DNA from: Candidatus Tepidifontimicrobium thermophilum
GTDB taxonomy: Bacteria > Sysuimicrobiota > Sysuimicrobiia > Sysuimicrobiales > Sysuimicrobiaceae
DNA length: 64,000 nt
Direction: 5' to 3'
Assembly (NCBI GenBank): GCA_031459915.1
Contig: JAVKHO010000007.1
Location: 56,389-120,388 of the forward strand
Below are positions 22,986-39,546 of this stretch, piece by piece. The translations under genes and the position numbers were made by a program. Positions within the stretch are counted from its first letter, which is position 1; each line of letters opens with the position of its first letter. The notes beneath the pieces were generated by a model that saw only the letters and a list, made by a program, of their open reading frames with translations, ran no database searches and was not told the origin of the DNA.

Positions 22986-24262
22986 CGGCTTCGGAGGAAC
23001 TGTTCCGGCGGGCCCGGCGCGTGATGCCCGGGGGGGTCAGCAGCCCGGTCCGGGCGTTCCGCGCGGTGGGGGGAAATCCGCCGTTCCTCGTGCGGGGCAA
23101 CGGCGCGTACGTGGAGGACGCAGACGGACGGCGCTACGTGGACTGCGTGAACTCCTGGGGGGCGCTGATCCTGGGCCACGCGCACCCGGCGGTGGTGCGG
23201 GCAGCGCAGCAGGCGGTGGCCGACGGGAGCAGCTTCGGCGCGCCCACACCGTGGGAGGTGGAGTTCTGCGAGCGGCTGTGCGCAGCGGTGCCGTCGGTGG
23301 AGGCGGTCCGGTTGGTGAACTCGGGCACCGAGGCGGTCATGAGCGCCCTGCGGGTGGCTCGGGCTGCCACGGGCCGCGAGGGGGTGGTGAAGTTCGATGG
23401 CGGCTACCACGGCCACGCGGACGCCCTGCTGGTGCGCGCGGGTTCGGGGGTGGCCACCTTCGACCTGCCCGACAGCGCGGGGGTGCCGCCCTCGGCGGTG
23501 CAGGCCACCGTTTCCCTTCCGTACAACGACTTGGACGCGGCGCGGGCTTTTTTCGAGCGGCGCGGGCACGAGATCGCGGCGGTGTTGGTGGAGCCCGTGG
23601 CGGGCAACATGGGCACCGTTCCCCCCGAGCCGGGCTTCCTAGAGGGGTTGCGGGAGCTCACGGCCCGTTACGGCGCGCTGCTGGTGTTCGACGAGGTCAT
23701 CACGGGCTTCCGGTTGCGGTACGGCGCGGCCCAGGAGGTGTTCGGGGTACGGGCAGACCTCACGTGCCTGGGGAAGGTCATCGGCGGCGGCTTCCCCTTG
23801 GCCGCCTACGGCGGCCGGGCCGACCTCATGCGGCTGGTGGCGCCCGAGGGCCCCGTCTACCAGGCGGGCACCCTCTCGGGAAACCCCGTCGCGGTGCGGG
23901 CGGGGCTCGCCACCTTGGGGGTGCTGGAAGATGGAGCGGTCTACGCGCGGCTGGAGCACTGGGGCCACGTGCTCGAGGAGGGGTTACAGGACGCGGCCCG
24001 GCAGGCGGGCGTGGAGGTGTGGGTGAACCGAGTGGGCTCCATGCTGACGGTGTTCTTCACGCCGCAGCGGGTGGTGGACTACGCGACGGCCCGCAACTCT
24101 GACGCGGCGCGATTCGCCCGGTTCTTCCACGGTATGCTGTCCCGAGGGGTGTACCTGCCGCCCTCGCCCTTCGAGGCCTGGTTTCTGTCCGCCGCCCACG
24201 GCGAGCAGGAGGTGGACCGGATCCTCCAGGCGGCCCGGGGGGCGTTCCAGGAGGCCGTATGA
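22982..24262 (+). CDS. hemL: Glutamate-1-semialdehyde 2,1-aminomutase
   Basis: PGGVSSPVRAF, NSGTEA, YHGH, DEVITGFR, GKVIGGG, YQAGTLSGNP. Confidence 0.96.
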   Translation: MTASEELFRRARRVMPGGVSSPVRAFRAVGGNPPFLVRGNGAYVEDADGRRYVDCVNSWGALILGHAHPAVVRAAQQAVADGSSFGAPTPWEVEFCERLCAAVPSVEAVRLVNSGTEAVMSALRVARAATGREGVVKFDGGYHGHADALLVRAGSGVATFDLPDSAGVPPSAVQATVSLPYNDLDAARAFFERRGHEIAAVLVEPVAGNMGTVPPEPGFLEGLRELTARYGALLVFDEVITGFRLRYGAAQEVFGVRADLTCLGKVIGGGFPLAAYGGRADLMRLVAPEGPVYQAGTLSGNPVAVRAGLATLGVLEDGAVYARLEHWGHVLEEGLQDAARQAGVEVWVNRVGSMLTVFFTPQRVVDYATARNSDAARFARFFHGMLSRGVYLPPSPFEAWFLSAAHGEQEVDRILQAARGAFQEAV

Positions 24263-25002
24263 GCGGGCGTGTCCTGGTGGTGATGCCCCTGTACAACGAG
24301 GAGGCGACCCTCCAGGAGGTCCTGGAGGCGGTGCTGCACTACGCGCCACCCGGGACGGACGTCTTGGTGGTGGACGACGGCTCCACGGACGGCTCCGCGG
24401 AGATCCTGGCCCGCTTCCCGGAGGTTCGGGTGATCCGCCACCCGGAGAATCGCGGCTACGGCGCCTCCCTCATCGACGGCTTCCGCTACGCCCTCGACCA
24501 CGGCTACGACGCAGTGGTCACCATGGACTGCGACGCCCAGCACGAGCCGTACCTGATCCCGGACCTGCTGAGTGCTTTGGAGGACGCGGACATCGTGTCC
24601 GGCAGCCGGTACCTCCCCGGTTCGTCTCGGGGCCAGGAGCCGCCCCCGGATCGGCTGCGGATCAACCGGGAGGTCACCGAGCGGGTGAACGCGCTCACGG
24701 GCTACCGGCTCACGGACGCCTTCTGCGGGTTCAAAGCGTATCGGGCCGACGCCCTGCGGCGGATGCAGCTGGACGAGCCCTCCTACGGCATGCCCCTGCA
24801 GGTGTGGGTGCAGGCTGCCCGGTGGGGGCTGCGGGTCCGGGAGATCCCCATCGGTCGCATCTACAAGAACCCCCACCGCCGGTTCTGGGGCGGTCTGGAC
24901 GACCCGGAGGTCCGGCTGCGTTACTACCTGCAGGTGCTGGAGCGGGAGGCGGCTCGGTGGCTGCAGCAGCCGGCCTCCAGCGGGGAGGCGGGCGCGCGGT
25001 GA
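24259..25002 (+). CDS. GT2 family glycosyltransferase (polyprenol-phosphate glycosyltransferase-like, no TM)
   Basis: MPLYNE, VVDDGSTD, NRGYG, MDCDAQH, GSRY, DAFCGFKAY. Confidence 0.9.
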   Translation: MSGRVLVVMPLYNEEATLQEVLEAVLHYAPPGTDVLVVDDGSTDGSAEILARFPEVRVIRHPENRGYGASLIDGFRYALDHGYDAVVTMDCDAQHEPYLIPDLLSALEDADIVSGSRYLPGSSRGQEPPPDRLRINREVTERVNALTGYRLTDAFCGFKAYRADALRRMQLDEPSYGMPLQVWVQAARWGLRVREIPIGRIYKNPHRRFWGGLDDPEVRLRYYLQVLEREAARWLQQPASSGEAGAR

Positions 25003-25679
25003 AGACGGTCCTGGTCCTGGCCCCTCACCCCGACGACGCGGAGATCGCCATGGGTGGTACCATGGCCGCGCTGGTGGCGCAGGGCTGGCGGGTGGTGGTG
25101 TGCGACCTCACCGATGGCGAGCCCACCCCGGTGGGCACGCCGGAGCGGCGGCGGCGGGAGGCGGAACGGGCGGCGCGGATTCTCGGCGTGGAGCGCCAGA
25201 TCCTGGACCTGCCCAACCGTTTCCTGCTGGACGGGGTGGAGGCGCGCAAGAAGGTGGCTGCGGTGATCCGGGCGGTGCGGCCCGAGTGGCTGTTCGTGCC
25301 GTACTGGGAGGACGCCCACCCCGACCACGTCCAGGCCGCCACCCTGTGTGAGGCGGCGCGGTTCTACGCCAAGCTGACCCACACGGACATCCCGGGGGAG
25401 CCCCACTACCCGCGCCGGGTCGTGCACTTCTTCTCCACCCACTACCGCATGGTGCGGCGGCCGTCCTTCGTGTTCGACGTGAGCGAGACGCTGGAGCGCA
25501 AGATGGAGAGCCTGCGCGCGTACGAGAGCCAGTTCGGAGTTGAGCGGGGCAACTCCTGGGTCCTGGAGGCGGTGCGGGATGCCGCCCGCTACTTCGGTTC
25601 CCTGGTGGGCGTCTCGTACGGGGAGCCCTTCCTCCTGCGGGAGGAGCTCGGGGTGCGGAACCTGGAGGGGTTAGTGTGA
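24999..25679 (+). CDS. PIG-L family deacetylase, BshB1-like
   Basis: APHPDDAE, DLTDGE, DAHPDH, AYESQF, YGEPF. Confidence 0.88.
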   Translation: MKTVLVLAPHPDDAEIAMGGTMAALVAQGWRVVVCDLTDGEPTPVGTPERRRREAERAARILGVERQILDLPNRFLLDGVEARKKVAAVIRAVRPEWLFVPYWEDAHPDHVQAATLCEAARFYAKLTHTDIPGEPHYPRRVVHFFSTHYRMVRRPSFVFDVSETLERKMESLRAYESQFGVERGNSWVLEAVRDAARYFGSLVGVSYGEPFLLREELGVRNLEGLV

Positions 25680-27220
25680 CCGACGTGACCGAGCTGTCCA
25701 TCCCCACGCGCCACGGCGAGGTCCTCTGCACGCCTGAGTTCAGCCGTTGGCTGGAGCTGGCGGAAGCCACCGCCCGGCGGCTGGACGCAGCAAGCGTCTT
25801 CGGCCGGCCCCTGAGCGCTCTGCGGGCGCAGGCCCGGTCCGAGCTCGTGGGACGGGCCCAGGCCCTGCTGGGCCGCTGGGGCTTCGCGCCCCCTGAGGCC
25901 TCCCACGGTCCGTGGGTCGCCACCGGCCACCAGCCCGGCCTGTATCACCCGGGGATCTGGATCAAGACGTGGGCCGTGGACATCTGCGCGGGCCAGGGGG
26001 CGACCGGGCTGCACGTGGTGGTGGACTCCGACGAGTGCCAGTCCTGGGGTGCCCGAGTCCCGAGGCGGGACGGGACGCTGCAGGGGGTGCAGCGGACCCT
26101 CGTGGAGTGCGGCGACGGTGTTCCCTTCGAGGCGGCCCCGGTACCCGAGGAGGCCCGCTGGCGGGCCTTCTGCGCACAGCTACGGGACGACCTCGGGACC
26201 CTCGGTCTCCCGGAGCTCCTGGAGCGGGTCTCCCGGGCAGAGCAGGCGGGCCTGGAAAGCCTCTCCCGCGCGCGGCACCTGGGCGATTTCGGGGCCGGCC
26301 TGCGCAGACGGTTGGAGACGAAGCACCGGCAGGTCCGCTACTGGGAGGTGACCGTATCCGAGCTGTCGGAGACGCAGGCCTTCGGCCAGTTCGCCGCCTG
26401 GATCGCCCAGGATGCGGAGCGTTTTCGCGCCTGCCACAACGCGGCCCTGGACGAGTACCGCCGGCAGCAGGGCCTGCGCTCCCCGGCGCAGCCGTTCCCC
26501 AACCTACGGCGGGAAGGCGACTGGGTGGAGTTGCCCTTCTGGCTGGTGCGGGAGGGGAAGCGGCGGCCGGTATTCGTGCGGCCCGGAGCTCCTCCCGTGG
26601 TGTTCTGCGAGGGCAGGCCCGTAGGCGAGCTCACGGACCGTGGGCTGGAGGGCCTGCGCCCCAGGGCCCTCACCCTCACCCTGTTCCTGCGGCTTCTGGT
26701 GGCGGATCTGTTCGTGCACGGCGTGGGAGGCGCGCGCTACGACCGCGTCACCGACCGGGTCCTAGAGGAGTTCTTCGGAGTCACACCGCCGCCCTTCGCG
26801 GTCCTCACGGCCACCTTCCATCTCCCGCTGGCGCGACACGCAGATCCCCGGGAGGCGTACGGGGCTGCGCAGCGTCTGTGGCTGGACCTGCAGCACAACC
26901 CGGACCGCCACCTGGCCGACCCCGCCCAGGCGCGTCCCCTGGTGGAGGAAAAGTGGCGCTGCATCCGGGCTCTGGAGGCCGCGGACCTGACCCGGTCCGC
27001 CCGCCGGGAGCTCGCCCGGCGCATCCGGGCCATCAACGAGGCTTTGCGGGCCCACGTGCAGGACCGGATCGCTGAAGTGGAGGCGGAGCTGGAGGCGTTG
27101 CGGCGGGAGGTGCAGGAACACGAGGTCGCCGCGGACCGAGGCTACCCCTTCTTCCTGTTCGACCCCGAGGAGGTCTGCGCGCCGTTGCGGGCGCAGGAGG
27201 GAGTTCGGTGCGGCCGCTAG
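25676..27220 (+). CDS. Hypothetical protein, distantly BshC-like (putative ligase) with C-terminal coiled coil
   Basis: ATGHQPGLYHPGIWIK resembles the BshC TGQQ/H-x-LF-G-P-Y-K motif; LRPRAL...FVHGVGGARYD; ~510 aa like BshC. Confidence 0.55.
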   Translation: MTDVTELSIPTRHGEVLCTPEFSRWLELAEATARRLDAASVFGRPLSALRAQARSELVGRAQALLGRWGFAPPEASHGPWVATGHQPGLYHPGIWIKTWAVDICAGQGATGLHVVVDSDECQSWGARVPRRDGTLQGVQRTLVECGDGVPFEAAPVPEEARWRAFCAQLRDDLGTLGLPELLERVSRAEQAGLESLSRARHLGDFGAGLRRRLETKHRQVRYWEVTVSELSETQAFGQFAAWIAQDAERFRACHNAALDEYRRQQGLRSPAQPFPNLRREGDWVELPFWLVREGKRRPVFVRPGAPPVVFCEGRPVGELTDRGLEGLRPRALTLTLFLRLLVADLFVHGVGGARYDRVTDRVLEEFFGVTPPPFAVLTATFHLPLARHADPREAYGAAQRLWLDLQHNPDRHLADPAQARPLVEEKWRCIRALEAADLTRSARRELARRIRAINEALRAHVQDRIAEVEAELEALRREVQEHEVAADRGYPFFLFDPEEVCAPLRAQEGVRCGR

Positions 27221-27888: not shown

Positions 27889-28538
27889 AGGCATGGCGGC
27901 GGGTGGCGGCCGTGGCCCGCAAGGACCTTCTCCTGGAGTGGCGCGGGCGCGACGCGGTGCTCCCCGCGGGCAGCTTCGGCTTCGCAGTCCTGCTGGTGCT
28001 AGGGCTGGTGTCCGGAGGTGGGGGGGAAGCCGCACCGTCGGCGCTGTGGGTGTCCGTCCTCCTGGCGGCAGTGCTGGCGGCAGGACGCGGTGCGGACCGG
28101 GAAGGAGAGGAGGGGACCCGGGAGGTGCTGCTGCTGTACCCCGGCAGCCGCGAGGACCTGTTCTGGGGAAGGTGGCTGGCTCTGTGCGTGGTGCTGCTGG
28201 TCCTGGCTGCGGGACTGTGGTGCGCGCAGGTTCTCCTGTTTGACGCTCCAACCCGCGGGGCGGGCGTGCTGATCCTGGCGGCCCTGTTGGCTACAGCGGG
28301 GCTCGGCGCGGCGGGCACGTTGCTGGCCGCGCTGGTGGCCCACGTGCGGGCAGGACCGTTGCTGATGCCCCTTCTGTTCCTGCCCGCCACGGTTCCCGTG
28401 TTGCTGGCGGGAGTGCGGCTTTCCGAGACCGCGGCCTCCGGAGCGCCTGCGGGCCCGTGGTGGGGCGTGCTGGTGGTGTTCGACCTCCTGTTTTTGCTGG
28501 TGGGCCCCGTCCTGTTCGAGCTGGTGGTGGAGGGGTAG
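27885..28538 (+). CDS. ccmB: Heme exporter permease CcmB
   Basis: RKDLLLEWR, LMPLLFLPATVPVLLAGV; multiple TMs. Confidence 0.85.
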   Translation: MKAWRRVAAVARKDLLLEWRGRDAVLPAGSFGFAVLLVLGLVSGGGGEAAPSALWVSVLLAAVLAAGRGADREGEEGTREVLLLYPGSREDLFWGRWLALCVVLLVLAAGLWCAQVLLFDAPTRGAGVLILAALLATAGLGAAGTLLAALVAHVRAGPLLMPLLFLPATVPVLLAGVRLSETAASGAPAGPWWGVLVVFDLLFLLVGPVLFELVVEG

Positions 28539-28540
28539 GC

Positions 28541-29179
28541 TTGCGGGCGTTCGCGGTGGGAGGGACTGCGGCGCTGTTGAGCGTGGGCCTGTTCCTGGCC
28601 CTGTGGGGCTCCCCCCCGGACGCCTACCAGGGCGAGTACGTACGGATCATGTACGTGCACGTCCCTGCGGCGGTAAGCGCCTACGGGGCCGCCGCGGTGG
28701 CCTTCGGGGCTGGTGCCCTGTACCTGTGGCGGCGCGACCGGCGGTGGGACTTCGTCGGGCGCGCGGGCGCGGAGCTAGCGGCCCTGTTCTCCGGGCTGAC
28801 CCTCCTCACCGGGATGCTCTGGGGAAAGCCCGTGTGGGGCGTGTGGTGGGCGTGGGACGCCCGGCTGGTCACCACCGCGGTGCTGTTCCTGCTGTACGTG
28901 GGCTGCCTGCTGGTCCGAGATCTCGCGGACGACCCCGAGCGGGGCCGGAGGCTGTCCGCGGCGGTGGCGGTGCTGGCCTTCCTGGACGTGCCGGTGGTCC
29001 ACTACTCGGTGGTGTGGTTCCGGACCCTGCACCAGGGCCCGTCCATCAGCCTGCAGGGTGTGAAGTTGGCGCCGGAGTTCCTCCTGCCGCTGGCGGTGAA
29101 CGCCGTGGCCTACCTGGCCCTGCTGAGTGTGCTGCTGGCCGAACGGGCGCGCCTCGCGAGTCTGGAGGGGGAACGTTGA
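28541..29179 (+). CDS. ccmC: Heme chaperone-loading protein CcmC
   Basis: RIMYVHVP, WGKPVWGVWWAWDARL (WWD motif), SVVWFRTLHQ. Confidence 0.93.
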   Translation: MRAFAVGGTAALLSVGLFLALWGSPPDAYQGEYVRIMYVHVPAAVSAYGAAAVAFGAGALYLWRRDRRWDFVGRAGAELAALFSGLTLLTGMLWGKPVWGVWWAWDARLVTTAVLFLLYVGCLLVRDLADDPERGRRLSAAVAVLAFLDVPVVHYSVVWFRTLHQGPSISLQGVKLAPEFLLPLAVNAVAYLALLSVLLAERARLASLEGER

Positions 29180-29304
29180 GCCCCTGGGCGTGGGTACTAA
29201 CCGCGTACGGCTGCGCCGCCCTGCTGGTGGGCGTTTACGCCTGGCGCCTGTGGCGCCGCTTGCGGCAGGTGTCCAGGGCCAGGCTGGGAGAGGGGGAGAC
29301 GTGA
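29176..29304 (+). CDS. ccmD: CcmD-like small membrane protein (42 aa)
   Basis: MSPWAWVLTAYG...LWRRLR; overlaps both the ccmC stop and the ccmE start. Confidence 0.75.
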   Translation: MSPWAWVLTAYGCAALLVGVYAWRLWRRLRQVSRARLGEGET

Positions 29305-29711
29305 AGCGCCTACGGCTTGCTGCCGCGGTGTTGCTGGTGGTGGGTTCCCTGGGCTACGTGGTGGCCGGCGGGCTCCGGGAGGCGGTGGTGTACTACGTGA
29401 CGCCCACGGAGCTGCAGTCCAGGACCCTGGACCCCCGACGGCCGGTGCGGGTCGGCGGACAGGTAGTACCCGGCTCCCTCCGGCGAGAGGGCGGTGCGCT
29501 GCGCTTCGTGCTGTCCGACGGGCAGGCCCGGCTGCCGGTGCGGTTTGCGGGCAGCGTGGAGGGGCTGCTGGTGGAAGGGCAGGGCGCGGTGGTGGAAGGC
29601 CGGCTGGGGCCGGACGGAACCCTGGAGGCCCGCAGCGTGGTGGTGAAGCACTCGGAGGAGTACACTCCACCCCGCTCTCCGTTGCCACCCGCGGAGCGGA
29701 ACGCGCCCTGA
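29301..29711 (+). CDS. ccmE: Heme chaperone CcmE (His-type)
   Basis: YYVTPTEL, RVGGQV, EGQGAVVEG, KHSEEY (H-x3-Y). Confidence 0.92.
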   Translation: MKRLRLAAAVLLVVGSLGYVVAGGLREAVVYYVTPTELQSRTLDPRRPVRVGGQVVPGSLRREGGALRFVLSDGQARLPVRFAGSVEGLLVEGQGAVVEGRLGPDGTLEARSVVVKHSEEYTPPRSPLPPAERNAP

Positions 29712-29901
29712 GCCAGCGCGGCTGGCCCGGCGTCCACGGACCGGAAGCGCTTGACGGGCTCGGATCGGGGCACGGAAAATCGTGGCCGGACCTTCACGGA
29801 GGGGGCCGAGAGGCTCCCTCTTTGCGTGTGCAGGCCGAAGAGGAGTCCGGGCATCGGAAGTCAAAAAGACACGCCAGCTCATTTTTGATTCGGGAGGCAG
29901 G

Positions 29902-30804
29902 TTGCACCGACGGCAAGCCGGACCCCTGTGCGGCCGGCGGCCCCGCGGGGGGGCCGGCGGGTTGTTGCTGCTGGTGGCGGCGATTCTCGGCCTCGCGGGC
30001 TGCCAGCCGTACGTCGGGGTGAGCACCCCCGCCAGGGAGGCCTACCAGCCCCTGGAAGGGTTCGTGGTGCGCATGAACTTCATGCCCCGCAAGCCCAGCG
30101 CGGACGAGGGCCGCAAGATCTACGAGGCGCGCTGCGCGGTGTGCCACGGGCCCGAGGGCCGTGGGGACGGCCCCATGGCGGAGCAGCTGACCGCTCCGGA
30201 GAAAAACCCGTACACGGACTTCTTGAGCCTGTTCCGCATCCACCCCAAGACCGAGCCGCTGCCGAGTCGGCCCGCCCGCTTCAACAACCTGGACCAGATG
30301 CGGTTGAACGCGCCGTTCGCCCTGTTCGAGACTATCGCCCGGGGCCGGCCCCACACTGCCATGCCCGGCTTCCAGCATCCCGCCTACGGTGCCGTGGATG
30401 GGGGTGATCCGCGCCTTACGGACGAACAGATCTGGGACGTGCTGTTCTGGGAGTGGAGCCGGACCACGAGCCGGGACCGGCTGGCACAGGGAAGGCGGAT
30501 CTACAACCAGCTGTGCGCCAGCTGCCACGGGGTGGCGGGCGACGGGAACGGTCCCGAGGCCGCCCGGATCCGCGAGCAGGTGTGGACGTGGGCGCGGGGT
30601 GTGGGGCCGGGGATCTTCACGGACCGGGACTGGATGGCCTACCGGAAGCCCACGGAGCTGTACCAGAAGATCGCGGAGGGAGTGCAGCGGCGCGGGCTGG
30701 AGCTCATGCCCGCCTACGCGGGCAAGCTCTCGGCGGACCAGATCTGGAGCGTGGTAGAGTACCTGTGGACGTTCGTGTACACGCCGCCGCAGGACCTGCG
30801 CTAG
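29902..30804 (+). CDS. Diheme c-type cytochrome, probable lipoprotein
   Basis: Lipobox LAGC; CAVCH and CASCH, each with a distal MP motif; TTG start after GGGAGG (uncertain). Confidence 0.85.
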   Translation: MHRRQAGPLCGRRPRGGAGGLLLLVAAILGLAGCQPYVGVSTPAREAYQPLEGFVVRMNFMPRKPSADEGRKIYEARCAVCHGPEGRGDGPMAEQLTAPEKNPYTDFLSLFRIHPKTEPLPSRPARFNNLDQMRLNAPFALFETIARGRPHTAMPGFQHPAYGAVDGGDPRLTDEQIWDVLFWEWSRTTSRDRLAQGRRIYNQLCASCHGVAGDGNGPEAARIREQVWTWARGVGPGIFTDRDWMAYRKPTELYQKIAEGVQRRGLELMPAYAGKLSADQIWSVVEYLWTFVYTPPQDLR

Positions 30805-30832
30805 CTGCGGGTGCGGCAACGGAGGCGGGGCT

Positions 30833-31477
30833 GTGAACCGTCGGACGTTCCTCAAGGCGCTGAGTGCGGTGCCGGTGCTGGGGGGTCTCGGCGCCTTCCT
30901 GGCGCCGGTGCTGCGCTACCTGAAGCCGAACCTGGAGCCGGGGCTGGGGGTTCCCCAGGGGAAGGTGCCCCCGGACCTCGCGGAGGGGGACCTCCCGAAG
31001 GGGGAGCCGCTCCCCATCGCCACCCTGGAGGAGCTGCGCGAGCCCTGGTCCAGCAAGTTCTTCGTGTTCACCCAGAAGTACCCGCAGTACACGCCGGAGC
31101 TGGCCAAGGCGGCCACGGTCCCCGGGGTGGCCATCAAGCTGCCGTGGAAGTTGAGCTTCCCCGGCTACAAGGCCGGGAAGGAGCCCACGGACATCGTGGT
31201 GTTCTCCCGCATCTGCCCGCACCTGGGCTGCATCTTCAACTACGTGCCGAACTGGCGGGAGGTCACGGCGGGCTACGGCGGGTACGTGCCGCCGGAGGAA
31301 CGTCGCCACGGCCTCATGGCCTGCCCCTGCCACCTGTCCATCTACGACCCCGCGGACCGGGAGGTGCCCGGCCGGGTGCTGTCGGGACCCGCGCCCCGGC
31401 CCCCCCGCTACTTCACCTACGAGATCCGCGACGGGGTCATCGTGGTGACGGGCGCCGAGCCCGGCGGGATCGCCTAG
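30833..31477 (+). CDS. Rieske [2Fe-2S] subunit of a Rieske/cytochrome b complex
   Basis: Tat signal NRRTFLK; CPHLGC and CPCHLS boxes; GPAPRP. Confidence 0.93.
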   Translation: MNRRTFLKALSAVPVLGGLGAFLAPVLRYLKPNLEPGLGVPQGKVPPDLAEGDLPKGEPLPIATLEELREPWSSKFFVFTQKYPQYTPELAKAATVPGVAIKLPWKLSFPGYKAGKEPTDIVVFSRICPHLGCIFNYVPNWREVTAGYGGYVPPEERRHGLMACPCHLSIYDPADREVPGRVLSGPAPRPPRYFTYEIRDGVIVVTGAEPGGIA

Positions 31478-31489
31478 GGAGCCGGAGCG

Positions 31490-32638
31490 ATGTGGGACCG
31501 GTTGCGGGAGTGGTTCCGGGAGCGCAAGGAGAAGCTGGACCTTTTCGACGAGACCCAGGTCGACCGCCAGGACAACCCCCTCTACCTCCTCGGTCAGATC
31601 GTGTACTTCGCGTGGATCGCGGTGGTGGTGAGCGGGATCCTGCTCATGATCTGGTACGAGCCCACCACCCACGGCGCCTACAACTCCATCCTCCGCATCC
31701 AGCACGAGGTCCCCTTGGGCTGGCTGATCCGCGGGGTGCACAAGTACGGCGCGGACATGCTGATCCTCGCCATCACCCTGCGCATCTACCGGATGTACTT
31801 CCTGGGCGAGTACAAGCGGCCCAACGAGCTGTCGTGGATGATCCTGTTCGGCTCCCTGGTGCTGGCCATGATCTCCGGCCTCACGGGGTACCTGCTGATC
31901 TGGAACCAGCGGGCCTTCTGGGCGGCGAAGGTAGTCCTCACGGTGGCGGTGTACCTGGATGAGCTGCCCCTCATCGGGCAGACGCGGTTCGGCAGCGCCA
32001 TCGCCTTCGCCTTCCTGGGTGGGCCCGCGGAAGGGCAGGGGACTCTCACGCGCTTCTACGCCATCCACTTCGGCATCTCGGCCCTGCTGCTGGTGGCGGC
32101 GGAGATCTACTTCTACTTCACCCGGCGGCGCCGGTTCGTGTTGTCCCCCACCGCTTTGGTGATCCTGGCCCTCATGCTGGTGGTCACCAGCTACGTGTTC
32201 CCCGCGGAGATGGGCCGGCGGGCCGACCCCAACCGGACGCCGCTCCCGATCCTTTCCGACTGGTACTTCCTGGCGCTGTACCAGTACGTGAAGTACACCC
32301 CGCCCCTGTGGGCCGGGCTGGGGCCGGGTCTGCTGATCGCGTACGGGATGCTGGTGCCGTTCCTCGACCGCAGTAAGGGCCGCAGGCCGTCCGAGCGCCC
32401 CTTCTTCACCGTGGTGGGAATTATGGCCCTGACCTACTTCCTGGTGTTCACCGCTCTCATCATGTTCAACATCGCCGTGATCGGGAGGGACCCGCACGTG
32501 GTCCTGCTGGTCACCGCCGCCACCCTGGGTCTGGGCCTGGTGTTGGAGTTCCGTTACCGCCGGCGGAGGAAGCTCGCAGAGGCCGCCGCGCCGGCCCCGG
32601 CGCCGCGGGCCGCGCCGGCCCGGGCGACGGTGGGGTGA
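31490..32638 (+). CDS. Cytochrome b (b6 + subunit IV-like fused), only the bL His pair retained
   Basis: GWLIRGVH, TGYLLIWNQ, LTRFYAIH, SDWYF; Arg and Tyr at the second His positions. Confidence 0.88.
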   Translation: MWDRLREWFRERKEKLDLFDETQVDRQDNPLYLLGQIVYFAWIAVVVSGILLMIWYEPTTHGAYNSILRIQHEVPLGWLIRGVHKYGADMLILAITLRIYRMYFLGEYKRPNELSWMILFGSLVLAMISGLTGYLLIWNQRAFWAAKVVLTVAVYLDELPLIGQTRFGSAIAFAFLGGPAEGQGTLTRFYAIHFGISALLLVAAEIYFYFTRRRRFVLSPTALVILALMLVVTSYVFPAEMGRRADPNRTPLPILSDWYFLALYQYVKYTPPLWAGLGPGLLIAYGMLVPFLDRSKGRRPSERPFFTVVGIMALTYFLVFTALIMFNIAVIGRDPHVVLLVTAATLGLGLVLEFRYRRRRKLAEAAAPAPAPRAAPARATVG

Positions 32639-32642
32639 GGCG

Positions 32643-32906
32643 GTGGAGGCGGTCCGGTTCGGGATGGCTTTCGGCCTGGCGGTAGCAGGCCTGCACGGCA
32701 CCTGGCAGGCGGCGCGCCTGGCGTGGGTACAGCCCCAGCCGGAGCGGTGGCTTGTGGCGGCCGGGTGGCTGGCGGTGCTGGTGGTCTCGGCCGCGTGGGC
32801 GGGCTACCTGCTGTACGCCGCGGACCGCCGGGCGGGCCGGGTGCGTCGACGGGTCGCGGTGTACGAGCGCTGGCTGGCTTTCCAGCGAGGCGGGAGGTGG
32901 GCGTGA
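32643..32906 (+). CDS. Small 2-TM hypothetical protein
   Basis: SD GAGG, two hydrophobic segments, overlaps the next gene. Confidence 0.65.
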   Translation: MEAVRFGMAFGLAVAGLHGTWQAARLAWVQPQPERWLVAAGWLAVLVVSAAWAGYLLYAADRRAGRVRRRVAVYERWLAFQRGGRWA

Positions 32907-33106
32907 GGGAGCCAGAGCGCGGCGGCTGGTACCTGGCGGTGGCGGGCTTTCTGGCGGTACTGGCCCTGGCGTGCGTCGGCCTGATGGTGTACGGGGAGTG
33001 GTTCGACCGGCGCCTGGTGGCCTCGGGAGCCGTGGGCGTGCTGCTGGTGCTGTACGCCGTCATCGTGGTGCTGTTCCGCAAGGCGCACCTCACCGCGGAG
33101 GACTAG
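32903..33106 (+). CDS. Small 2-TM hypothetical protein
   Basis: GTG after GGGAGG, GTGA overlap; WYLAVAGFLAVLALA...VLLVLYAVIVVLF. Confidence 0.7.
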   Translation: MREPERGGWYLAVAGFLAVLALACVGLMVYGEWFDRRLVASGAVGVLLVLYAVIVVLFRKAHLTAED

Positions 33107-33107
33107 G

Positions 33108-34283
33108 GTGTACCGGCGGTTGTTGCTGAGCCTGCAGAGTGCCACCCTGCGGTTGGACACCTGGATCAACCGCGTCCTGCCGCAGGACTTCAACCCCCTG
33201 TACTACACCGGGGGGCTGTCGAACCTGTTCCTCACCATCCTGGTGGTGTCGGGGATCCTCATCTTCCTGTACTACGAGCCGAGCCTGGAGGGCGCCTACG
33301 CCTCGGTGGAGTTCCTCACCCGCGACGTGCCCTACGGGGTCGTGTTCCGCGGGATCCACCGCTACGCCGCGGACGCGTACCTGGTGGCCATCCTCCTGCA
33401 CCTGTTCCGGAACTGGTTCACGGACCGCTACCGGGAGGCCCGGGACAGCCAGTGGCTGTCGGGGATGTTCCTGCTGGTGGTGTCGGGCTTCGCGGGCTTC
33501 ACCGGCTACCTGTTGGTGTGGGACGAGCGGTCGCAGCTGCTGACGAGCCTCACGGTACAGGCCCTGAGGTCCGTCCCCCTGGTGGGAGACCGGCTCGCCC
33601 GGGTATTCCTGGGGGGCCCCGGGGTGAGCGACACCACCCTGCCGCGGTTCCTGTTCCTCCACGTGGGGCCCGCCATGACCCTGTACGTACTCCTGTGGTG
33701 GCACTACGTGCGCCTCCGCCACCCCAAGATCTGGCCCCCCTCCGTGTGGGTGCTGTTCAGCCTGGGCCTGCTGTTCATCCTCGCTTCCGCCTTGCCCGCC
33801 ACGAGCGGACGGCCGGCGCAGCCGGGCGCCTCGCCGGAGGGGTTCGCGGTGGACTGGTTCTTCCTGTGGCCGTACGTGCTGGCCCGCTGGCTGGCGCCCG
33901 GTTGGGCCCTGGCCCTGGTGGTGGCCCTGGTGGCATACGGCATGGTGGTCCCCTACACCCTGCGGGAGACTCCGGAGCAGCGGGGCGTCCGGGCCTTGGG
34001 CCAGGCGGTGGTGGTGGAGGAGAACTGCACGGGCTGCGAGCTGTGCTACTACGACTGCCCGTACAACGCCATCTACATGGTGCCGAGCCCGTACCCGGGG
34101 AAGAGCCGGGCTGCGGCCAACCGGAAGCTGCTGGCAGTGGTGGTGGACTCCCGGTGCGTGGAGTGCGGGATCTGTATCGGCGCCTGCCCCTTCGAGGCCC
34201 TGGAGTTGCCGAGGATGCTGGACAAGGACGTACAGCAGCGCATCCAGCGGGGCGCACGCGCCGCGGCCCCGGTGGGTTCCTGA
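33108..34283 (+). CDS. Cytochrome b fused to C-terminal 2[4Fe-4S] ferredoxin
   Basis: RGIHRY..LLHLFR and FLHV..WWHY (all four His); CTGCELCYYDCP and CVECGICIGACP. Confidence 0.9.
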   Translation: MYRRLLLSLQSATLRLDTWINRVLPQDFNPLYYTGGLSNLFLTILVVSGILIFLYYEPSLEGAYASVEFLTRDVPYGVVFRGIHRYAADAYLVAILLHLFRNWFTDRYREARDSQWLSGMFLLVVSGFAGFTGYLLVWDERSQLLTSLTVQALRSVPLVGDRLARVFLGGPGVSDTTLPRFLFLHVGPAMTLYVLLWWHYVRLRHPKIWPPSVWVLFSLGLLFILASALPATSGRPAQPGASPEGFAVDWFFLWPYVLARWLAPGWALALVVALVAYGMVVPYTLRETPEQRGVRALGQAVVVEENCTGCELCYYDCPYNAIYMVPSPYPGKSRAAANRKLLAVVVDSRCVECGICIGACPFEALELPRMLDKDVQQRIQRGARAAAPVGS

Positions 34284-34293
34284 GGCGAGAGCC

Positions 34294-34725
34294 ATGGCGA
34301 CGGTACCGGATCGGACCCCGCAGGCGGAGGAGGCAGCCCCCCGGGTCGTGGGGTTCCTGTGCGACTGGGCGGTACGCAGCGAGGGGCTCCTGAGCGCCGA
34401 CGACACCCTGGTAGGCATGCCGCATGTCACGGTGATCCGGGTCCCCTGCTCAGGGTTCGTCAAGCCCGGGTGGTTGGAGCTGGCGCTGCGCAGCGGCGCC
34501 GCGGGCGCCTTCGTGTGCGGTTGCCCCATGGGGGACTGCCTCAACCGGGAAGGCAACTGGATCATGGAGGATCGCATCGACCAGCTGCGGAAGCGTTTGA
34601 GCCGGCAGAAGGTGGACCCTGAGCGGGTCGCGTTCTTCGCCTTCGGCCTGCACGAGCGGGAGGACTTCCTGCGCGCGGTGGCGGAGTTCGTGGACCGGGT
34701 GCGCGGATCCGGAGGGAAGCGGTGA
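34294..34725 (+). CDS. MvhD/FlpD-family [2Fe-2S] protein
   Basis: VVGFLCDW, IRVPCSG, GCPMGDC..REGN, VDPERV. Confidence 0.85.
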   Translation: MATVPDRTPQAEEAAPRVVGFLCDWAVRSEGLLSADDTLVGMPHVTVIRVPCSGFVKPGWLELALRSGAAGAFVCGCPMGDCLNREGNWIMEDRIDQLRKRLSRQKVDPERVAFFAFGLHEREDFLRAVAEFVDRVRGSGGKR

Positions 34726-34838
34726 CGCGGTTTGGCCCGAAACGGTGGAAGACGTACCTGTGGTACGCCCTGTTCTACCTGGTGTTCTTTGCCCTGTTGC
34801 TGTTCGTGGCGGCCTTCGGTCTGGTGGCGGAGGCGTAG
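34722..34838 (+). CDS. 38-aa single-TM peptide (not in the ORF track)
   Basis: MTRFGPKRWKTYLWYALFYLVFFALLLFVAAFGLVAEA; GGAGGG SD, GTGA overlap with the mvhD-like stop. Confidence 0.7.
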   Translation: MTRFGPKRWKTYLWYALFYLVFFALLLFVAAFGLVAEA

Positions 34839-34853
34839 CGGAAGGGACACGGG

Positions 34854-36248
34854 ATGCTGGCGTGGATGTTCACCGACGAGCGATGGAGCTCCGTCCGGCG
34901 GTTCCTGTACGCGGGCGCGCTGTGGGGGATCCTGGCGCTGGCCTACGAGGCGCTGGCCGCCGCGCAGCGGGCCTGGCCGCAGGTCCTCGCGGACGTCCCC
35001 TGGGTGTCCCACGGGCGGGTGGTGGCCACCGGACAGGACCTGTGGGTGTTCGGTTTCCTGTCCCACCTCCTGGTGGGCGCGGCGCTGCGGGTGGTGGGAC
35101 AGGGCGACCGGGAGGGGCTGTGGAGCGAGCCCCTCGCGAACCTGAGCCTGTGGCTGTGGACTGTGGCGCAGGTGCTCAGCTGGTGGTGGATCTCCACGGG
35201 CTGGACCCGAGGCCGACCGCTCGGTGAGGCTCCCTGGCCGGTGGACCTGCTCCGGCTAGCGGGCGCGCTGCTTCTGTTGTGGGTGGTTCGCAACACGCTC
35301 GTCCGATCTCCCCGTAGGGACCCCGCGCTGGCCCTGGTGTTCGCGGGCTTCACCGGGCTGCCTCTGGTCCTAGTACTGGGGAAGGGCTTGTTCTGGCCCT
35401 TCGACAACCCCTACCACGGGATCCTGGACGCTCTGAGCCAGGCGTTCCTGCGGGCAGGCCTGGTCTGGCTATGGGGGGTCCCGCTGGCCGGTGGGGTCTG
35501 CCTGTACGTCCTGTCGGCCCTGACCGGCCGGCGCGGGCTTTCGGAGGGAGTGGGCTTCGCCGCCCTGTTCGGCCTGGTCAGTTTCGGGGCTCTCGCTGGG
35601 CCCGCGGAGTTCGTGTGGGGTCCGGTGCCGTTCTGGGTGCAGACCGTGGGCGCTGTGGCGCAGGGGCTGCTGGTGTTGCCGGTGGCGACGCTGCTCGTGG
35701 GTGCCGCGCGGTCGCTGGAAGGGCACTGGCAGTCCCTCGGGGACCACCCCGGTGTGGTCTTCGTGCTGGCGGGCTGGCTGGCGCTGACCTCCGGCGTGTC
35801 TTTGAGCGCGCTGGCGTCCCTCGTGGGTCCCAGCCGCGTGGTGCACCTCTCCCTGTGGGGAGAGGGGGTGCGGGTTCTGGTGCTGGGCGGCTGTGCCGCG
35901 GTGGCCGTGGGGTGTGCGTACCTGCTGACGCCACACGTGCTGGGACGCTCGCTAGCGAGCCGGGCCCTGGCCTGGCGGCATCTGTGGCTGGTGGTGGTGG
36001 CGTGGGCGCTCTCTGCGCCCGCGCTGCTGCTGGCGGGTCTGAGCCAGGGTGCGGCTTGGGCCACGGGCACGGTGCCCTTCGCTCACGCGGTACAGGCCAG
36101 CCGGCCCCTGCTGGCCGTGGCCTGGGCCGCGGCTCTGCTGGTGTGGGTCGGCCAGGCGGTGTTCGCGTGGAACCTGTTCTTGACCTCAGACTCCGGGGAA
36201 CCGGTTCCCGCAGCGGAGCAGGAGCTCCTGCCGGTGGCGGGGTCTTAG
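34854..36248 (+). CDS. cbb3-type oxidase subunit I (CcoN)-like protein lacking metal ligands
   Basis: ~12 TM; GR, GWTRGRPLGEAPWPVD, GPVPFWVQT and GLSQG..W align with CcoN; followed by a CcoO-like gene. Confidence 0.75.
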   Translation: MLAWMFTDERWSSVRRFLYAGALWGILALAYEALAAAQRAWPQVLADVPWVSHGRVVATGQDLWVFGFLSHLLVGAALRVVGQGDREGLWSEPLANLSLWLWTVAQVLSWWWISTGWTRGRPLGEAPWPVDLLRLAGALLLLWVVRNTLVRSPRRDPALALVFAGFTGLPLVLVLGKGLFWPFDNPYHGILDALSQAFLRAGLVWLWGVPLAGGVCLYVLSALTGRRGLSEGVGFAALFGLVSFGALAGPAEFVWGPVPFWVQTVGAVAQGLLVLPVATLLVGAARSLEGHWQSLGDHPGVVFVLAGWLALTSGVSLSALASLVGPSRVVHLSLWGEGVRVLVLGGCAAVAVGCAYLLTPHVLGRSLASRALAWRHLWLVVVAWALSAPALLLAGLSQGAAWATGTVPFAHAVQASRPLLAVAWAAALLVWVGQAVFAWNLFLTSDSGEPVPAAEQELLPVAGS

Positions 36249-36283
36249 GAGTGCGCCAGGCGGTGGGTCCTGGAGGTGGTGCG

Positions 36284-36742
36284 GTGAGGGATGCCGTGGG
36301 AGCTGTAGGGCGGCTGGTGGTGGCCGCGGTGGTGTGCGGGTTTGTGGTGACCGCCCTCCTGCCCGCCCTAGATCCTGCGGTCCGGACCGCGCGGGCGGCG
36401 CCCCTGTCAGCCCAGGCGGCGCGGGGGCGGTGGGTGTACGTGAGGGAGGGGTGTGTGGTCTGCCACACCCAGCAGGTGCGAGGGGTGGAGGCCCGGTTCG
36501 GCGTGGTGCGCGCGCCGGGTGACGTGGGGCAGGCTTCAACTGCGGAGCAGTACTCCGGTCAGGACCCCGTGCTGCTGGGTCGGCTGCGCCTAGGGCCGGA
36601 CCTGTCAAGGGTAGGGGCGCGTACCTCGGGACAGGAATTGCGGACGGCGCTGCTGTCGGGCACGGGGGGCATGCCCTCGTACCGGTACCTCTCGGACGCG
36701 GAGCTGGCTGACCTGGTGGCGTACCTGCTGGCGCTGCGGTAG
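36284..36742 (+). CDS. cbb3-type subunit II (CcoO/FixO)-like monoheme cytochrome c
   Basis: GRWVYVREGCVVCHTQQVR, GPDLSRVGAR, MPSY. Confidence 0.85.
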   Translation: MRDAVGAVGRLVVAAVVCGFVVTALLPALDPAVRTARAAPLSAQAARGRWVYVREGCVVCHTQQVRGVEARFGVVRAPGDVGQASTAEQYSGQDPVLLGRLRLGPDLSRVGARTSGQELRTALLSGTGGMPSYRYLSDAELADLVAYLLALR

Positions 36743-36750
36743 GAGGCGAC

Positions 36751-37296
36751 ATGGGAAACGAAACGACCACCGCGAGGCCTTCCCGCTGGCTGCTGGCGCT
36801 GTACGTGCTGCTGCCTTTGTGGGCCCTGGCGTACCTGTTCGTGGCGGGTGGGCTGGTGCAGCCGGAAATCAGGCCGGTGGCGCGGAACGTGGAGGGTGTT
36901 TCTGCAGGCACCGCCGCGGCGCCGGACGGCTCCGAGCACGTGATGGGCATCCTGGCGGTGGTCCCGGAGGACGCCAGGGACGACCAGCCCCCGCGTCCGG
37001 TGACGGACGCCATGCTGGCCCAGGCGAAGGCCCAGTACGACACCCTGTGCGCGGTGTGCCACGGACCCGAGGGACGCGGGGACGGCCCCGCGGGCGCGGC
37101 CCTGAACCCGAAACCCCTCAACTTCCACTTCCGGGCCTTTCAGGAACGGATGCCGGTGGGCGCTACCCACTGGGTGATCAAGAACGGCCTGGGCAACACT
37201 CCCCGCCGCAGCGGGATGCCGGCCTTCGGCCAGCTACCGGACGACCAGATCTGGGCCCTGGTGGAGTACGTCCGGCGGCTGGGCCGCCAGCCATGA
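36751..37296 (+). CDS. Membrane-anchored monoheme cytochrome c
   Basis: N-terminal TM, CAVCH, SGMPAF, QIWALVEY. Confidence 0.88.
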   Translation: MGNETTTARPSRWLLALYVLLPLWALAYLFVAGGLVQPEIRPVARNVEGVSAGTAAAPDGSEHVMGILAVVPEDARDDQPPRPVTDAMLAQAKAQYDTLCAVCHGPEGRGDGPAGAALNPKPLNFHFRAFQERMPVGATHWVIKNGLGNTPRRSGMPAFGQLPDDQIWALVEYVRRLGRQP

Positions 37297-38270
37297 CGCA
37301 GGCCGCGGCAGACGCCCTGGCCTCCGCCTACGCCCCGGTTCGCGAGGACCTGGAGCGGCTGCAGGACCTGCTGCGCCAGGAACTGGCGGCCCACGACCCC
37401 TTCCTCATGGAGCTGGTGTCGCATGTGCTGCATACCCGCGGCAAGATGGTGCGGCCGGCCCTGGCGTTCCTGTGCGCGCGCCTGGCAGGAGGGGGAGGGG
37501 CGCACCGTGACCTGGTGGCTGCGGCGGTGGAGCTCATCCACGTGGCCAGCCTCATCCACGACGACGTGATCGACGAGGCCGACCGCCGGCGCGGTCAGGC
37601 GACGCCCAACGCCCGGTGGGGCAACCACGTGGCGGTGTTGCTGGGTGACTACCTGTTCAGCAAGGCCTTCCACCTGCTCTCCCGAGTCGGGCGGGACGAC
37701 GTGGCGAGCCGGGTGGCCTTCGCCACCGTGCGCATGAGCCAGGCGGAGCTGCTCCAGGTCAAGTACGGCAACACCCCGCACACGGACGAGTCGGTGTACT
37801 TTGCCATCGTGGAAGGCAAGACCGCCCAGCTGGTGTCCTCCGCGTGCGCGGGAGGGGCGCTGGTGGGGGGAGGGGACGGGGATCTGGCGGAGCGGCTGGG
37901 CACCTTCGGGCTGCACTGGGGCGTGGCCTTCCAGATCACCGACGACACCCTGGATCTCACCAGCGACCCGGAAGTCCTAGGCAAGCCGATTGGCAGCGAC
38001 GTCCGGGGAGGGAAGGTCACCCTGCCCTTGATCCACGCGCTCCGCCACGCGGACGAGCAGGGGCGCCGGCGGCTGGAGAAGTGGATCCGGGCAGGCGAGC
38101 TGGCCCCGCTCCGGCACGCCCTGGAGACATCCGGGTCCTTCGCCTACGCCCTGGAGGTGGCCCGGCAGCACGCCCAGCGGGCGCTCCGCATCCTGGAGAC
38201 ACTTCCGGGAGGGCCGGAGCGTGACAGCTTGGCGGCCCTCACGGAGTTCGTGGTCTCCCGCCGCCACTAG
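37293..38270 (+). CDS. Long-chain polyprenyl diphosphate synthase (HepT/IspB-like)
   Basis: GKMVRP, LIHDDVID..RRG, GKTA, FQITDDTLD, GKVTLP. Confidence 0.92.
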   Translation: MTQAAADALASAYAPVREDLERLQDLLRQELAAHDPFLMELVSHVLHTRGKMVRPALAFLCARLAGGGGAHRDLVAAAVELIHVASLIHDDVIDEADRRRGQATPNARWGNHVAVLLGDYLFSKAFHLLSRVGRDDVASRVAFATVRMSQAELLQVKYGNTPHTDESVYFAIVEGKTAQLVSSACAGGALVGGGDGDLAERLGTFGLHWGVAFQITDDTLDLTSDPEVLGKPIGSDVRGGKVTLPLIHALRHADEQGRRRLEKWIRAGELAPLRHALETSGSFAYALEVARQHAQRALRILETLPGGPERDSLAALTEFVVSRRH

Positions 38271-38406
38271 GCCCCATTGGAGGCGTGACCCACCCGGGCG
38301 GTCGCCTGGTGGCGGCCGCGCAGCTCGGGTACACTGCCTCTCGGTGGAGGCGGTGCGGCACTGGCTGGACAGCCTGCGGACGCCCCTGGGGAGGGTGCGG
38401 GAGGCC

Positions 38407-39546
38407 ATGGTGTCGTTCGCCGTGGCCACCACCTCGCGTCACCTGGAGGCGTACCGGGAGGTGGTGGTCAGGCGGTGGCGGGCCTCCCTGCAGCGCCGCG
38501 TGGCCCGGTACGCCGAACACCCGGATCTGTCTGACCGCTGGGGGAAGCAGACGGTGGACTTGCTGGTCCAGGTGATGCGGGCCCGGGGCGAGGTGGAGCG
38601 GCTGGAGGCCCGCGACCGGGTCTTCGAGCACGCGCACCGGGTGGCCTCCGAGCAGCTGGAACTGGGGTTCAGCCTGGAGGAGATCCTGCAGGCTCTGAGC
38701 CTGCTGCGCAGCAGCCTGTCCGCCCAAGTGCAGGTGATGCTGAGCCGGCGGCTGTGGGTGGCATTCCCCCCTGACGTGATGCTGGCCACGGAGCGGGTCC
38801 ACGAGGCCATCGACCTGCAGATGCTGGCCATCGGCCAGGCCTACCTGGAGGCCCGGGACCGGGTGATCCGGGAGAAGCAGCGGGACCTGGAGGAGAGCAA
38901 CGAGAAGCTGCGGACCCTGCTGCGGGAGATGCACCACCGGATCAAGAACAACCTGCAGACCCTCGCCGACCTCCTGTACCTGGAAGCCCTCGAAGCAGGG
39001 GGAGCTGCCCGCAAGAGCCTCCTGGACAGCATCGGCCGGGTGAAGAGCATCGCCGCGGTGCACCAGATGCTGTCCGCGGACCGCATCGAGGCGGTGGAGG
39101 TACGCCGGCTGGCGGAGCGCATCGGGGAGATCATCGGGCGGGACCTGGTCCGAGCGGGCCGTGCGGTGCGCGTGGAGATCCAGGGTCCGGAGGTGTGGCT
39201 GCCGAGCAAACAGGCCACAGCCCTGGCCCTGGTGCTAAGCGAGCTGATCCACAACGCGCTGGAGCACGCCTTCCCGGACGGGCGCGGGCGGGTGGTAGTG
39301 CACCTCGGGCAGGTGGGCCAGGAGGTGTGGGTGAGGGTCCGGGACGACGGGGTGGGCCTGCCGCCGGATTTCTCCGTGGAGCGGCACGGACACCTGGGCC
39401 TGCGTATCGTCCGGGACCTGGTGAGCCGTGACCTGCGGGGCACCTTCTCCCTTCGCTCGGAGGGCGGGGCGGTGGCGGAGGTGCATTTCCAGGTGCCCGA
39501 GGCCGGGGAGGAAGTGGGGCCGGCGGTCGGGGAGGTGACGGCGTGA
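38407..39546 (+). CDS. Soluble sensor histidine kinase (HisKA_2, PdtaS/EutW-like) with RsbR-N/globin-like N-terminal domain
   Basis: EMHHRIKNNLQ, ELIHNALEHAF, DDGVG, HLGLRIV; helical N-terminus with LGFSLEEI; no TM. Confidence 0.85.
   Translation: MVSFAVATTSRHLEAYREVVVRRWRASLQRRVARYAEHPDLSDRWGKQTVDLLVQVMRARGEVERLEARDRVFEHAHRVASEQLELGFSLEEILQALSLLRSSLSAQVQVMLSRRLWVAFPPDVMLATERVHEAIDLQMLAIGQAYLEARDRVIREKQRDLEESNEKLRTLLREMHHRIKNNLQTLADLLYLEALEAGGAARKSLLDSIGRVKSIAAVHQMLSADRIEAVEVRRLAERIGEIIGRDLVRAGRAVRVEIQGPEVWLPSKQATALALVLSELIHNALEHAFPDGRGRVVVHLGQVGQEVWVRVRDDGVGLPPDFSVERHGHLGLRIVRDLVSRDLRGTFSLRSEGGAVAEVHFQVPEAGEEVGPAVGEVTA

Follow-up and report, generated by a model that had tools for sequence, protein, structure and literature searches.

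The window analysed here is a 64,000-nucleotide stretch of DNA from Candidatus Tepidifontimicrobium thermophilum (C31:56389-120388 in a 2.6-Mb assembly, 96% complete), whose plus strand carries a respiratory gene cassette with a Rieske protein and two different cytochromes b. Cytochrome b1 (31490..32638) has lost the ligands of the high-potential heme bH, and cytochrome b2 (33108..34283) is fused to a tail with two predicted [4Fe-4S] clusters and is followed by a gene for an MvhD/FlpD-like protein (34294..34725). We propose, with a probability of about 45%, that these genes encode a heterodimeric complex III whose low-potential electron exits to the cytoplasm through the iron-sulfur (Fe-S)/MvhD arm. 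In this mechanism, b1 would oxidise menaquinol at its quinol-oxidation site (Qo), and b1 and b2 would dimerise via a bridge between their low-potential hemes (bL-bL). The first electron would pass from the Rieske protein to a diheme cytochrome c, a CcoO-like or monoheme cytochrome c and a heme-copper oxidase encoded elsewhere. The second would pass from bL of b1 to bL and then bH of b2, on to the two [4Fe-4S] clusters and the [2Fe-2S] cluster of the MvhD-like protein, and would leave the latter to a cytoplasmic acceptor rather than return to quinone. With a high-potential Rieske protein and menaquinol, this electron is predicted to have a potential low enough to reduce NAD(P)+ through a flavoprotein, or else a soluble carrier of mid potential. 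Such a complex would be a quinol-based bifurcating enzyme, moving one charge per quinol and sending reducing power back to the cytoplasm, with no quinone-reduction site (Qi).

The exit arm is favoured because of the high-potential Rieske signature in combination with menaquinone, the analogy with anammox complexes, and the lack of the heme cn Cys and of recognisable Qi residues in b2. The pairing of b1 and b2 as a heterodimer, common to three of the four readings weighed below, is highly probable. The broader proposal, a natural complex III that is an obligate heterodimer, belongs to the core of two lineages and, with an HdrA-derived arm in place of Qi, makes NAD(P)H or a reduced carrier in aerobic respiration, is advanced only tentatively.

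Complementary losses in cytochromes b1 and b2

The cassette was compared across the best 80 of 170 genome loci, a set that spans Sysuimicrobiota and Obscuribacterales and in which the closest relatives are Sysuimicrobiota (CSP1-3) genomes. Cytochrome b1 retains the bL ligands H84 and H193 and an intact Qo, with the cd1 helix and the SDWY motif invariant and the Qo residues conserved in 67/67 near-full-length homologs (5 of 72 were left out for coverage). Both bH ligands are replaced (R98 and Y207, beside an invariant E205): position 98 in helix B is Arg or Lys in all 67 homologs, and the helix D position is Phe, Tyr or Leu in all but locus L080. Cytochrome b2, about 35% identical to b1, has the opposite pattern. 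Its four heme ligands (His84, His98, His185 and His199) are invariant in 79/79 near-full-length homologs (one of 80 was left out for coverage), and its PEWY-equivalent is degenerate (VDWF at 248-251), both as given in a preliminary description of this DNA. The probable loss of Qo stated there is further supported by the Gly158-equivalent, which is Leu, Val or Ile in 77 of the 79 homologs, and by the variability of the cd1 helix; outside Obscuribacterales, 38 of 61 homologs have Val in place of the motif Trp.

The complementarity of the two sets of defects, also anticipated in that description, was complete in 65 of the 66 Sysuimicrobiota and Obscuribacterales loci with both genes near full length, which are related loci from two lineages and not 66 independent events. 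In the same 65 loci, the four heme His and the intact Qo that canonical bc1 and b6f complexes combine in one cytochrome b are split over b2 and b1. The sole exception is L080, whose b1 has Lys98 and His207. The only PF00033 matches in the genome are b1 and b2, which leaves b1 without an alternative partner. That b1 is a pseudogene was ruled out by its invariant Qo residues and by its coverage with RNA reads, and a look-up in the ESM Atlas returned generic cytochrome b clusters only.

Two variants of b1 were observed. A deeper-branching form of the cassette (L080:1555-3186 and L110:3764-5500) encodes a b1 with Lys in helix B and His in helix D; these residues might ligate a second heme as a His/Lys pair, or mark a stage part-way through the loss of the heme. 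In Obscuribacterales (L060-L079), b1 has about 240 extra C-terminal residues with a hydrophobic start, and no CxxCH was present in the four checked.

Engineered dimers of the R. capsulatus bc1 complex in which one half carries G158W and the other H212N support growth via the bL-bL bridge, and symmetric knock-outs fail to grow (PMC4152375; here and below, published work is described from the accessible parts of the sources cited). By analogy, the b1/b2 pair is, in all appearance, a natural form of this engineered cross-inactivated dimer. Whether electron transfer between the halves of a bc dimer has a natural role has so far been argued from engineered mutants; in the cassette, the cross-inactivated state seems to have become fixed in nature, and the bL-bL bridge would thus be obligatory.

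The iron-sulfur arm and the direction of electron flow

Behind its cytochrome domain (Pfam Cytochrome_B 22-204, E 8e-31), the 391-aa b2 fusion carries two C-terminal Cys motifs, CTGCELCYYDCP (C307/310/313/317) and CVECGICIGACP (C350/353/356/360), within Fer4 domains at 301-364. In 200,000 shuffles of b2, two such motifs never arose, and seven of the eight Cys are kept in 79/79 homologs, the eighth in 78/79. The downstream protein (143 aa, predicted [2Fe-2S]) is the sole FlpD match in the genome (FlpD/MvhD, E 1.6e-25). Its C23, C52, C77 and C82 align with Cys of 5odc_D (E 8e-17) and are invariant in 77/77 aligned homologs, a fifth Cys, C75, being variable. The cluster motifs of both proteins are therefore as first described. 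On the HdrA2 profile, the ferredoxin tail of b2 matches positions 571-639 and the MvhD-like protein positions 642-769, and these adjoining stretches make the two look like one HdrA-MvhD-derived module. In the Hdr-Mvh structure 5odc, the tail matches chain A (575-647) and the MvhD-like protein chain D. The truncated HdrA of the genome (C10) covers positions 134-562 of the profile, directly ahead of both.

The AlphaFold model of b2 has six transmembrane helices ahead of the tail, and the canonical membrane topology of cytochrome b is well established, so the tail is predicted to lie in the cytoplasm, in agreement with the initial proposal; the ferredoxin domain itself is modelled at low confidence (pLDDT <50 over much of the domain). 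Among the Foldseek matches listed for this model, cytochromes b were the only hits. Contact between the fusion and the MvhD-like protein, also part of that proposal, is supported by single-chain homologs: of 12 longer homologs, 11 unite the cytochrome b, ferredoxin and MvhD domains on one chain (order checked in six).

A metagenome scan with an alignment of the fused forms confirmed at least 457 loci, 80 of which were kept. On their contigs, many of them short, a Rieske or b1 match is missing in 79/80, and 70/80 have one or more genes of an operon that comprises oxidase subunits II and I, heme O synthase, SCO and a COX1-like protein. Subunit I of these operons has H-x3-Q at the position of the cross-link Tyr in 42 of 45 rows, a Gln that we take to mark eNOR. 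In three of the 80 loci, ferredoxin and MvhD are replaced by a [2Fe-2S]-FAD-NAD module, and in a quick unrooted tree this version branches from within the single-chain forms. The arm can thus be exchanged for a module that handles pyridine nucleotides, a sign of chemistry at the NAD(P) level in either direction. In the same tree, built without an outgroup and without named members of the PDWF-FeS clade, cassette b2 falls outside the single-chain clade (SH-aLRT 100) and b1 lies on a long branch. The gene order of the single-chain operons matches that of the eNOR operon in a recent preprint, where a cytochrome b-FeS-FAD-NADH protein is a proposed quinol:NAD+ oxidoreductase (10.64898/2026.01.22.701106), and the single-chain forms correspond to the PDWF-FeS clade as described in PMC4122944.

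Several architectures were encountered among these relatives. In one eNOR-like operon (L092:4649-9587), a NuoF-type NADH-binding gene lies between two single-chain genes, and a 762-aa chain (P0132) has cytochrome b fused to a COX1-like domain. Other single-chain forms (P0121-P0131; L087:9567-10070) have, fused or adjacent, a beta-rich domain with a membrane anchor, a C...HMR...C pattern and no match in Pfam; its layout is reminiscent of CcoG, and a role in copper handling is possible.

The arm need not be catalytic if the cassette runs an ordinary Q-cycle with one Qo in b1 and one Qi in b2, in which case ferredoxin and MvhD would only sense redox state, buffer electrons or provide a docking site. 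The cassette is not accompanied by a catalytic partner, and a single Qo/Qi pair is enough in the engineered dimers (PMC4152375). Such a role is nevertheless quite improbable, given that the eight ferredoxin Cys and four MvhD Cys are retained across two phyla and that relatives swap the module for an NAD(P)-FAD module. Another possibility arises from the single-chain forms without Rieske or b1, mostly in eNOR-like operons, which imply that b2-type proteins can work without b1. The operon could then hold two separate machines, with b2-ferredoxin-MvhD as a stand-alone transmembrane wire and with b1 and the Rieske protein oxidising quinol without a Q-cycle, both electrons going to the periplasmic side. 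We consider this unlikely, since b1 and b2, with losses that mirror each other, are neighbours in two distant phyla, cassette b2 branches outside the single-chain clade, and a bc1 complex without bH in both halves is non-functional (PMC4152375).

The heterodimer with an exit arm draws further support from the inner face of b2. The position of the heme cn Cys is occupied by Y33, no conserved His stands five residues past the bH ligand (Arg or Thr/Ala/Gln is found there), and the linker between helices D and E is only about 10 residues long in the model. The canonical Qi residues of bc1 are His, Asp and Lys. At the same time, the cytoplasmic face of b2 near bH is highly conserved (N29, P30, Y32, Y33, W197, Y200, R202 and P206), and this conservation is one argument for an arm that works in the opposite direction. 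In that case, b2 would keep a non-canonical Qi into which MvhD and ferredoxin inject electrons from reduced ferredoxin or NAD(P)H, each Qo turnover completing a two-electron reduction of quinone, as proposed for heme cn of b6f, which has been discussed as a stromal entry point (PMC7908018). Entry would be energetically downhill in any heterotroph, 2-oxoacid:ferredoxin oxidoreductases were found in 33/33 genomes tested, and the lack of NuoF in Obscuribacterales (0/5) suggests a need for a ferredoxin sink. However, the same oxidoreductase family occurs in 10/14 controls, which weakens the 33/33 count; the missing heme cn Cys, the missing conserved His and the short D-E linker do not favour a Qi, and entry leaves unexplained why menaquinone users have a Rieske protein with a high-potential signature. 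On balance, electron entry through the arm is less likely than exit, but it is the strongest of the alternatives.

The direction of flow hinges on the Rieske protein (30833..31477), which has a Tat signal and both cluster boxes and whose gene adjoins that of cytochrome b. The gene was found in 64/80 loci, the remaining ones being mostly truncated, and the Ser/Tyr pair (Ser169 and Tyr171 here), a predicted high-potential signature, is present in 61 of 62 aligned homologs. This signature has been classed as 'high, above 260 mV' and described as never occurring with PDWY-type cytochromes b (PMC4122944). The genome has menF, menD, menB and menA above cut-offs, indicating menaquinone; across 15 genomes, MenB was above cut-off in 6 and MqnC-like matches, mostly below cut-off, were found in 7, including 4/4 Obscuribacterales. 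Simple arithmetic with menaquinol at about -75 mV and Rieske at about +280 mV places the second electron at about -430 mV. Anammox Rieske proteins titrate at +303/+335 mV and have been argued to permit NAD(P)+ reduction from menaquinol (PMC12954380). An orphan second Rieske gene (G000:C14:32870-33436, minus strand; L166), 85% identical to the cassette Rieske and apparently without a Tat signal, lies far from any cytochrome b.

Consistent with the initial reading that no hdrABC, hydrogenase or formate dehydrogenase gene lies nearby, tblastn of the window with the HdrA, HdrB, HdrC, hydrogenase, FdhA, NuoF and PorA proteins of the genome gave no match at E<=1e-3. Elsewhere, the genome encodes an Hdr-like cluster (C10), a NiFe hydrogenase (C2), a formate dehydrogenase (C23) and a small 2x[4Fe-4S]-type ferredoxin. 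The preliminary suggestion of a co-occurring HdrA-like partner did not hold: HdrA was found in just 6/50 cassette genomes and in 0/14 Obscuribacterales, including one complete genome, and it was rejected as general partner, though it may still serve in the genome of the window. A NuoF-type flavoprotein was likewise rejected, given its absence from 5/5 Obscuribacterales. An SDR-family gene lies near the cassette in 17/80 loci, none of them from Obscuribacterales. MvhD proteins of this type fused to another domain gave three hits, none with a flavin domain, which is weak evidence.

Several observations weigh against an exit arm. None of the 80 loci has a recurrent flavoprotein or FAD/NAD(P) oxidoreductase as neighbour, no acceptor gene was found within the cassette, and neither of the flavoproteins tested for co-occurrence, HdrA and NuoF, co-occurs with it. 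The exiting electron would also have to climb a membrane potential of about 150 mV, so that the reduction of NAD+ would be borderline and that of a ferredoxin at -420 mV is unlikely. To our knowledge, the Rieske signature rule is a rough one, some Ser-containing Rieske proteins of menaquinone users titrating much lower, and in 2 of the 15 genomes no quinone pathway could be assigned. Furthermore, the conserved inner face of b2 could fit a retained non-canonical Qi equally with Fe-S docking, and the b1 of L080 may, judging from its residues, keep a second heme.

The gene cluster, its distribution and the link to oxidases

The cassette is part of a densely packed plus-strand cluster with intergenic gaps of -4 to 28 bases, preceded by heme synthesis and ccm genes. 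It opens with a diheme c-type cytochrome (29782..30804; two CxxCH, Pfam Cytochrom_C), a probable lipoprotein whose true start is probably 3' of 29782; its gene is kept upstream of the Rieske gene across loci, and the protein is the likely acceptor of Rieske electrons. The Rieske and b1 genes follow, and then two genes for small membrane proteins without family match, one kept in Sysuimicrobiota loci (32643..32906) and one with two helices predicted from its sequence (32903..33106). Downstream of b2 and the MvhD-like gene, a hydrophobic 38-aa open reading frame (34722..34838), known from sequence alone, overlaps the MvhD stop. The cluster closes with a CcoN-like subunit (34854..36248), a CcoO-like monoheme cytochrome c with profile matches and a heme motif (36245..36742), a membrane-anchored monoheme cytochrome c assigned likewise (36751..37296) and a polyprenyl diphosphate synthase, probably for the quinone side chain and present in 48/80 loci (37293..38270). 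Between the heme and ccm genes, the window also encodes a glycosyltransferase, a PIG-L deacetylase and a 514-aa protein without clear family (24259-27220).

At the cluster start lies a weak promoter-like site, TTGACG-18-GAAAAT (29751..29780), the sole consensus match in 29000-38500 (shuffle mean 0.3). In an RNA run from a hot spring (X6), of which about 5% was read, giving 126 reads, stranded reads cover the cluster in a single orientation throughout. At low depth, they begin in the bin from 29736, beside the promoter-like site, with none in the 1.3 kb upstream of the cluster (28400-29735). These reads suggest that the cluster is transcribed in a close relative, and they fit several transcripts as well as one. 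Two further runs (X1 and X2) yielded contigs holding the stretch and are uninformative on transcription, and another (X4) gave five reads.

A full-length b2 orthologue (E <1e-130) was found in 53/60 genomes of the phylum at completeness >=90%, or in 51/58 when the unpublished genomes G061 and G066 are left out. Six of the seven genomes without b2 belong to a single genus, in which heme-copper oxidase matches are missing too (0/6); the seventh has a heme-copper oxidase match. In Obscuribacterales, the cassette genes come after ccoN-ccoO, with the CcoN His ligands intact in 14/14. The CcoN-like protein of the window has none of the six canonical His, which rules it out as a working oxidase, and is, on inspection of its residues, probably a cofactor-free scaffold; together with CcoO, the CcoN-like protein is retained in 10 non-Obscuribacterales loci. 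In other Sysuimicrobiota, a cupredoxin-like gene follows MvhD instead (23 loci), and the genome of the window encodes two A-family oxidase subunits I elsewhere. Taken together, the co-loss with oxidases and the oxidase-linked loci indicate that the cassette most plausibly serves as complex III in a chain linked to an oxidase. As the sole complex III-type system of the genome, present in nearly all genomes of its phylum (53/60), it defines the respiration of these uncultured bacteria.

Other redox loci of the genome were also recorded. One (G000:C4:85120-88621; L084) encodes oxidase subunits II and I with an H-x3-Q active site and a COX1-like gene, a probable eNOR-type NO reductase with no adjacent cytochrome b-FeS gene on the contig. 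The Hdr-like cluster (G000:C10:38900-52700; L081), with HdrC, HdrB, truncated HdrA, Etf-like, membrane CCG, lipoate-binding and TusA/DsrE-like genes, resembles the sulfur-oxidising sHdr system and is patchy among relatives. A third locus (G000:C11:4360-12901; L083) has tandem molybdopterin oxidoreductases (TtrA-like and PhsA-like) with Fe-S and NrfD-like subunits, adjoining pyruvate:ferredoxin oxidoreductase.

Comparison with known systems

A literature search covering few subscription journals and no supplements found no published complementary heterodimer with an Fe-S/MvhD arm. Already in print are a cytochrome b-4Fe-4S-MvhD fusion without Rieske, an operon of Melainabacteria with two cytochrome b genes, and undefined 'large cytochrome b' subfamilies (PMC5600118); in the main text of the Sysuimicrobiota genome paper, the terms 'complex III' and 'cytochrome' do not occur (PMC11604079). 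If the exit arm is true, the cassette would be a second, independent case of quinol-driven reduction of NAD(P)+ or a carrier, so far proposed for anammox only, and the process would be present in common soil and hot-spring aerobes. An arm that makes NAD(P)H or a reduced carrier would raise the energy yield, or let donors at the quinone level, sulfide for instance, provide reductant with no need to run complex I in reverse.

The published fusion, the PDWF-FeS clade of Kao & Hunte 2014, likewise pairs cytochrome b with 4Fe-4S and MvhD domains (PMC4122944). Its MvhD is fused, whereas that of the cassette is a separate adjacent gene, and the clade has no Rieske protein, while the cassette has one together with c-type cytochromes and a second, bH-less cytochrome b. 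The cytochrome b-[Fe-S] and cytochrome b-[Fe-S]-FAD-NADH proteins of eNOR operons resemble b2 in being fusions and share their operon type with most of the single-chain relatives. They differ in having neither a Rieske protein nor a bH-less partner, and their function is a proposal of the preprint (10.64898/2026.01.22.701106). The Melainabacteria operon, which contains a C-family oxidase and two cytochrome b genes (cited in 10.1101/531145; PMC6349859), is matched by the Obscuribacterales loci, with the order ccoN-ccoO-cyt c-Rieske-b1-b2-MvhD, and by the cluster of the window, which also has two cytochrome b genes and ccoN/ccoO. Its oxidase is catalytically intact, unlike the window CcoN without the six His, and heme loss, Fe-S fusion and MvhD go unmentioned in the accessible text of the two sources.

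With the Hdr-Mvh/Fdh complex (PDB 5odc), the cassette shares the C-terminal ferredoxin of HdrA and an MvhD with four cluster Cys, here recognised from sequence. It differs in having no flavin-binding HdrA core and no linked HdrBC or hydrogenase, the module being attached to a membrane heme wire instead. The anammox Rieske/cytochrome b complexes are similar in their high-potential Rieske protein (predicted in our case), low-potential quinone, cytoplasmic Fe-S chain and doubtful Qi (PMC12954380). They are homodimers that contain heme cn, and their operon encodes a FAD/NAD(P) subunit, whereas the cassette has no heme cn Cys and no flavoprotein gene. Finally, the placement of a Rieske protein with a Tat signal next to cytochrome b recalls bc1 and b6f complexes, and the closest functional parallel for the b1/b2 pair itself would be the engineered G158W/H212N bc1, in which Qo is active in one half, bH is present only in the other and the bL-bL bridge connects them (PMC4152375). 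That dimer is a laboratory construct with a normal Qi, whereas the cassette is natural, is encoded by two genes and ends in an Fe-S arm.

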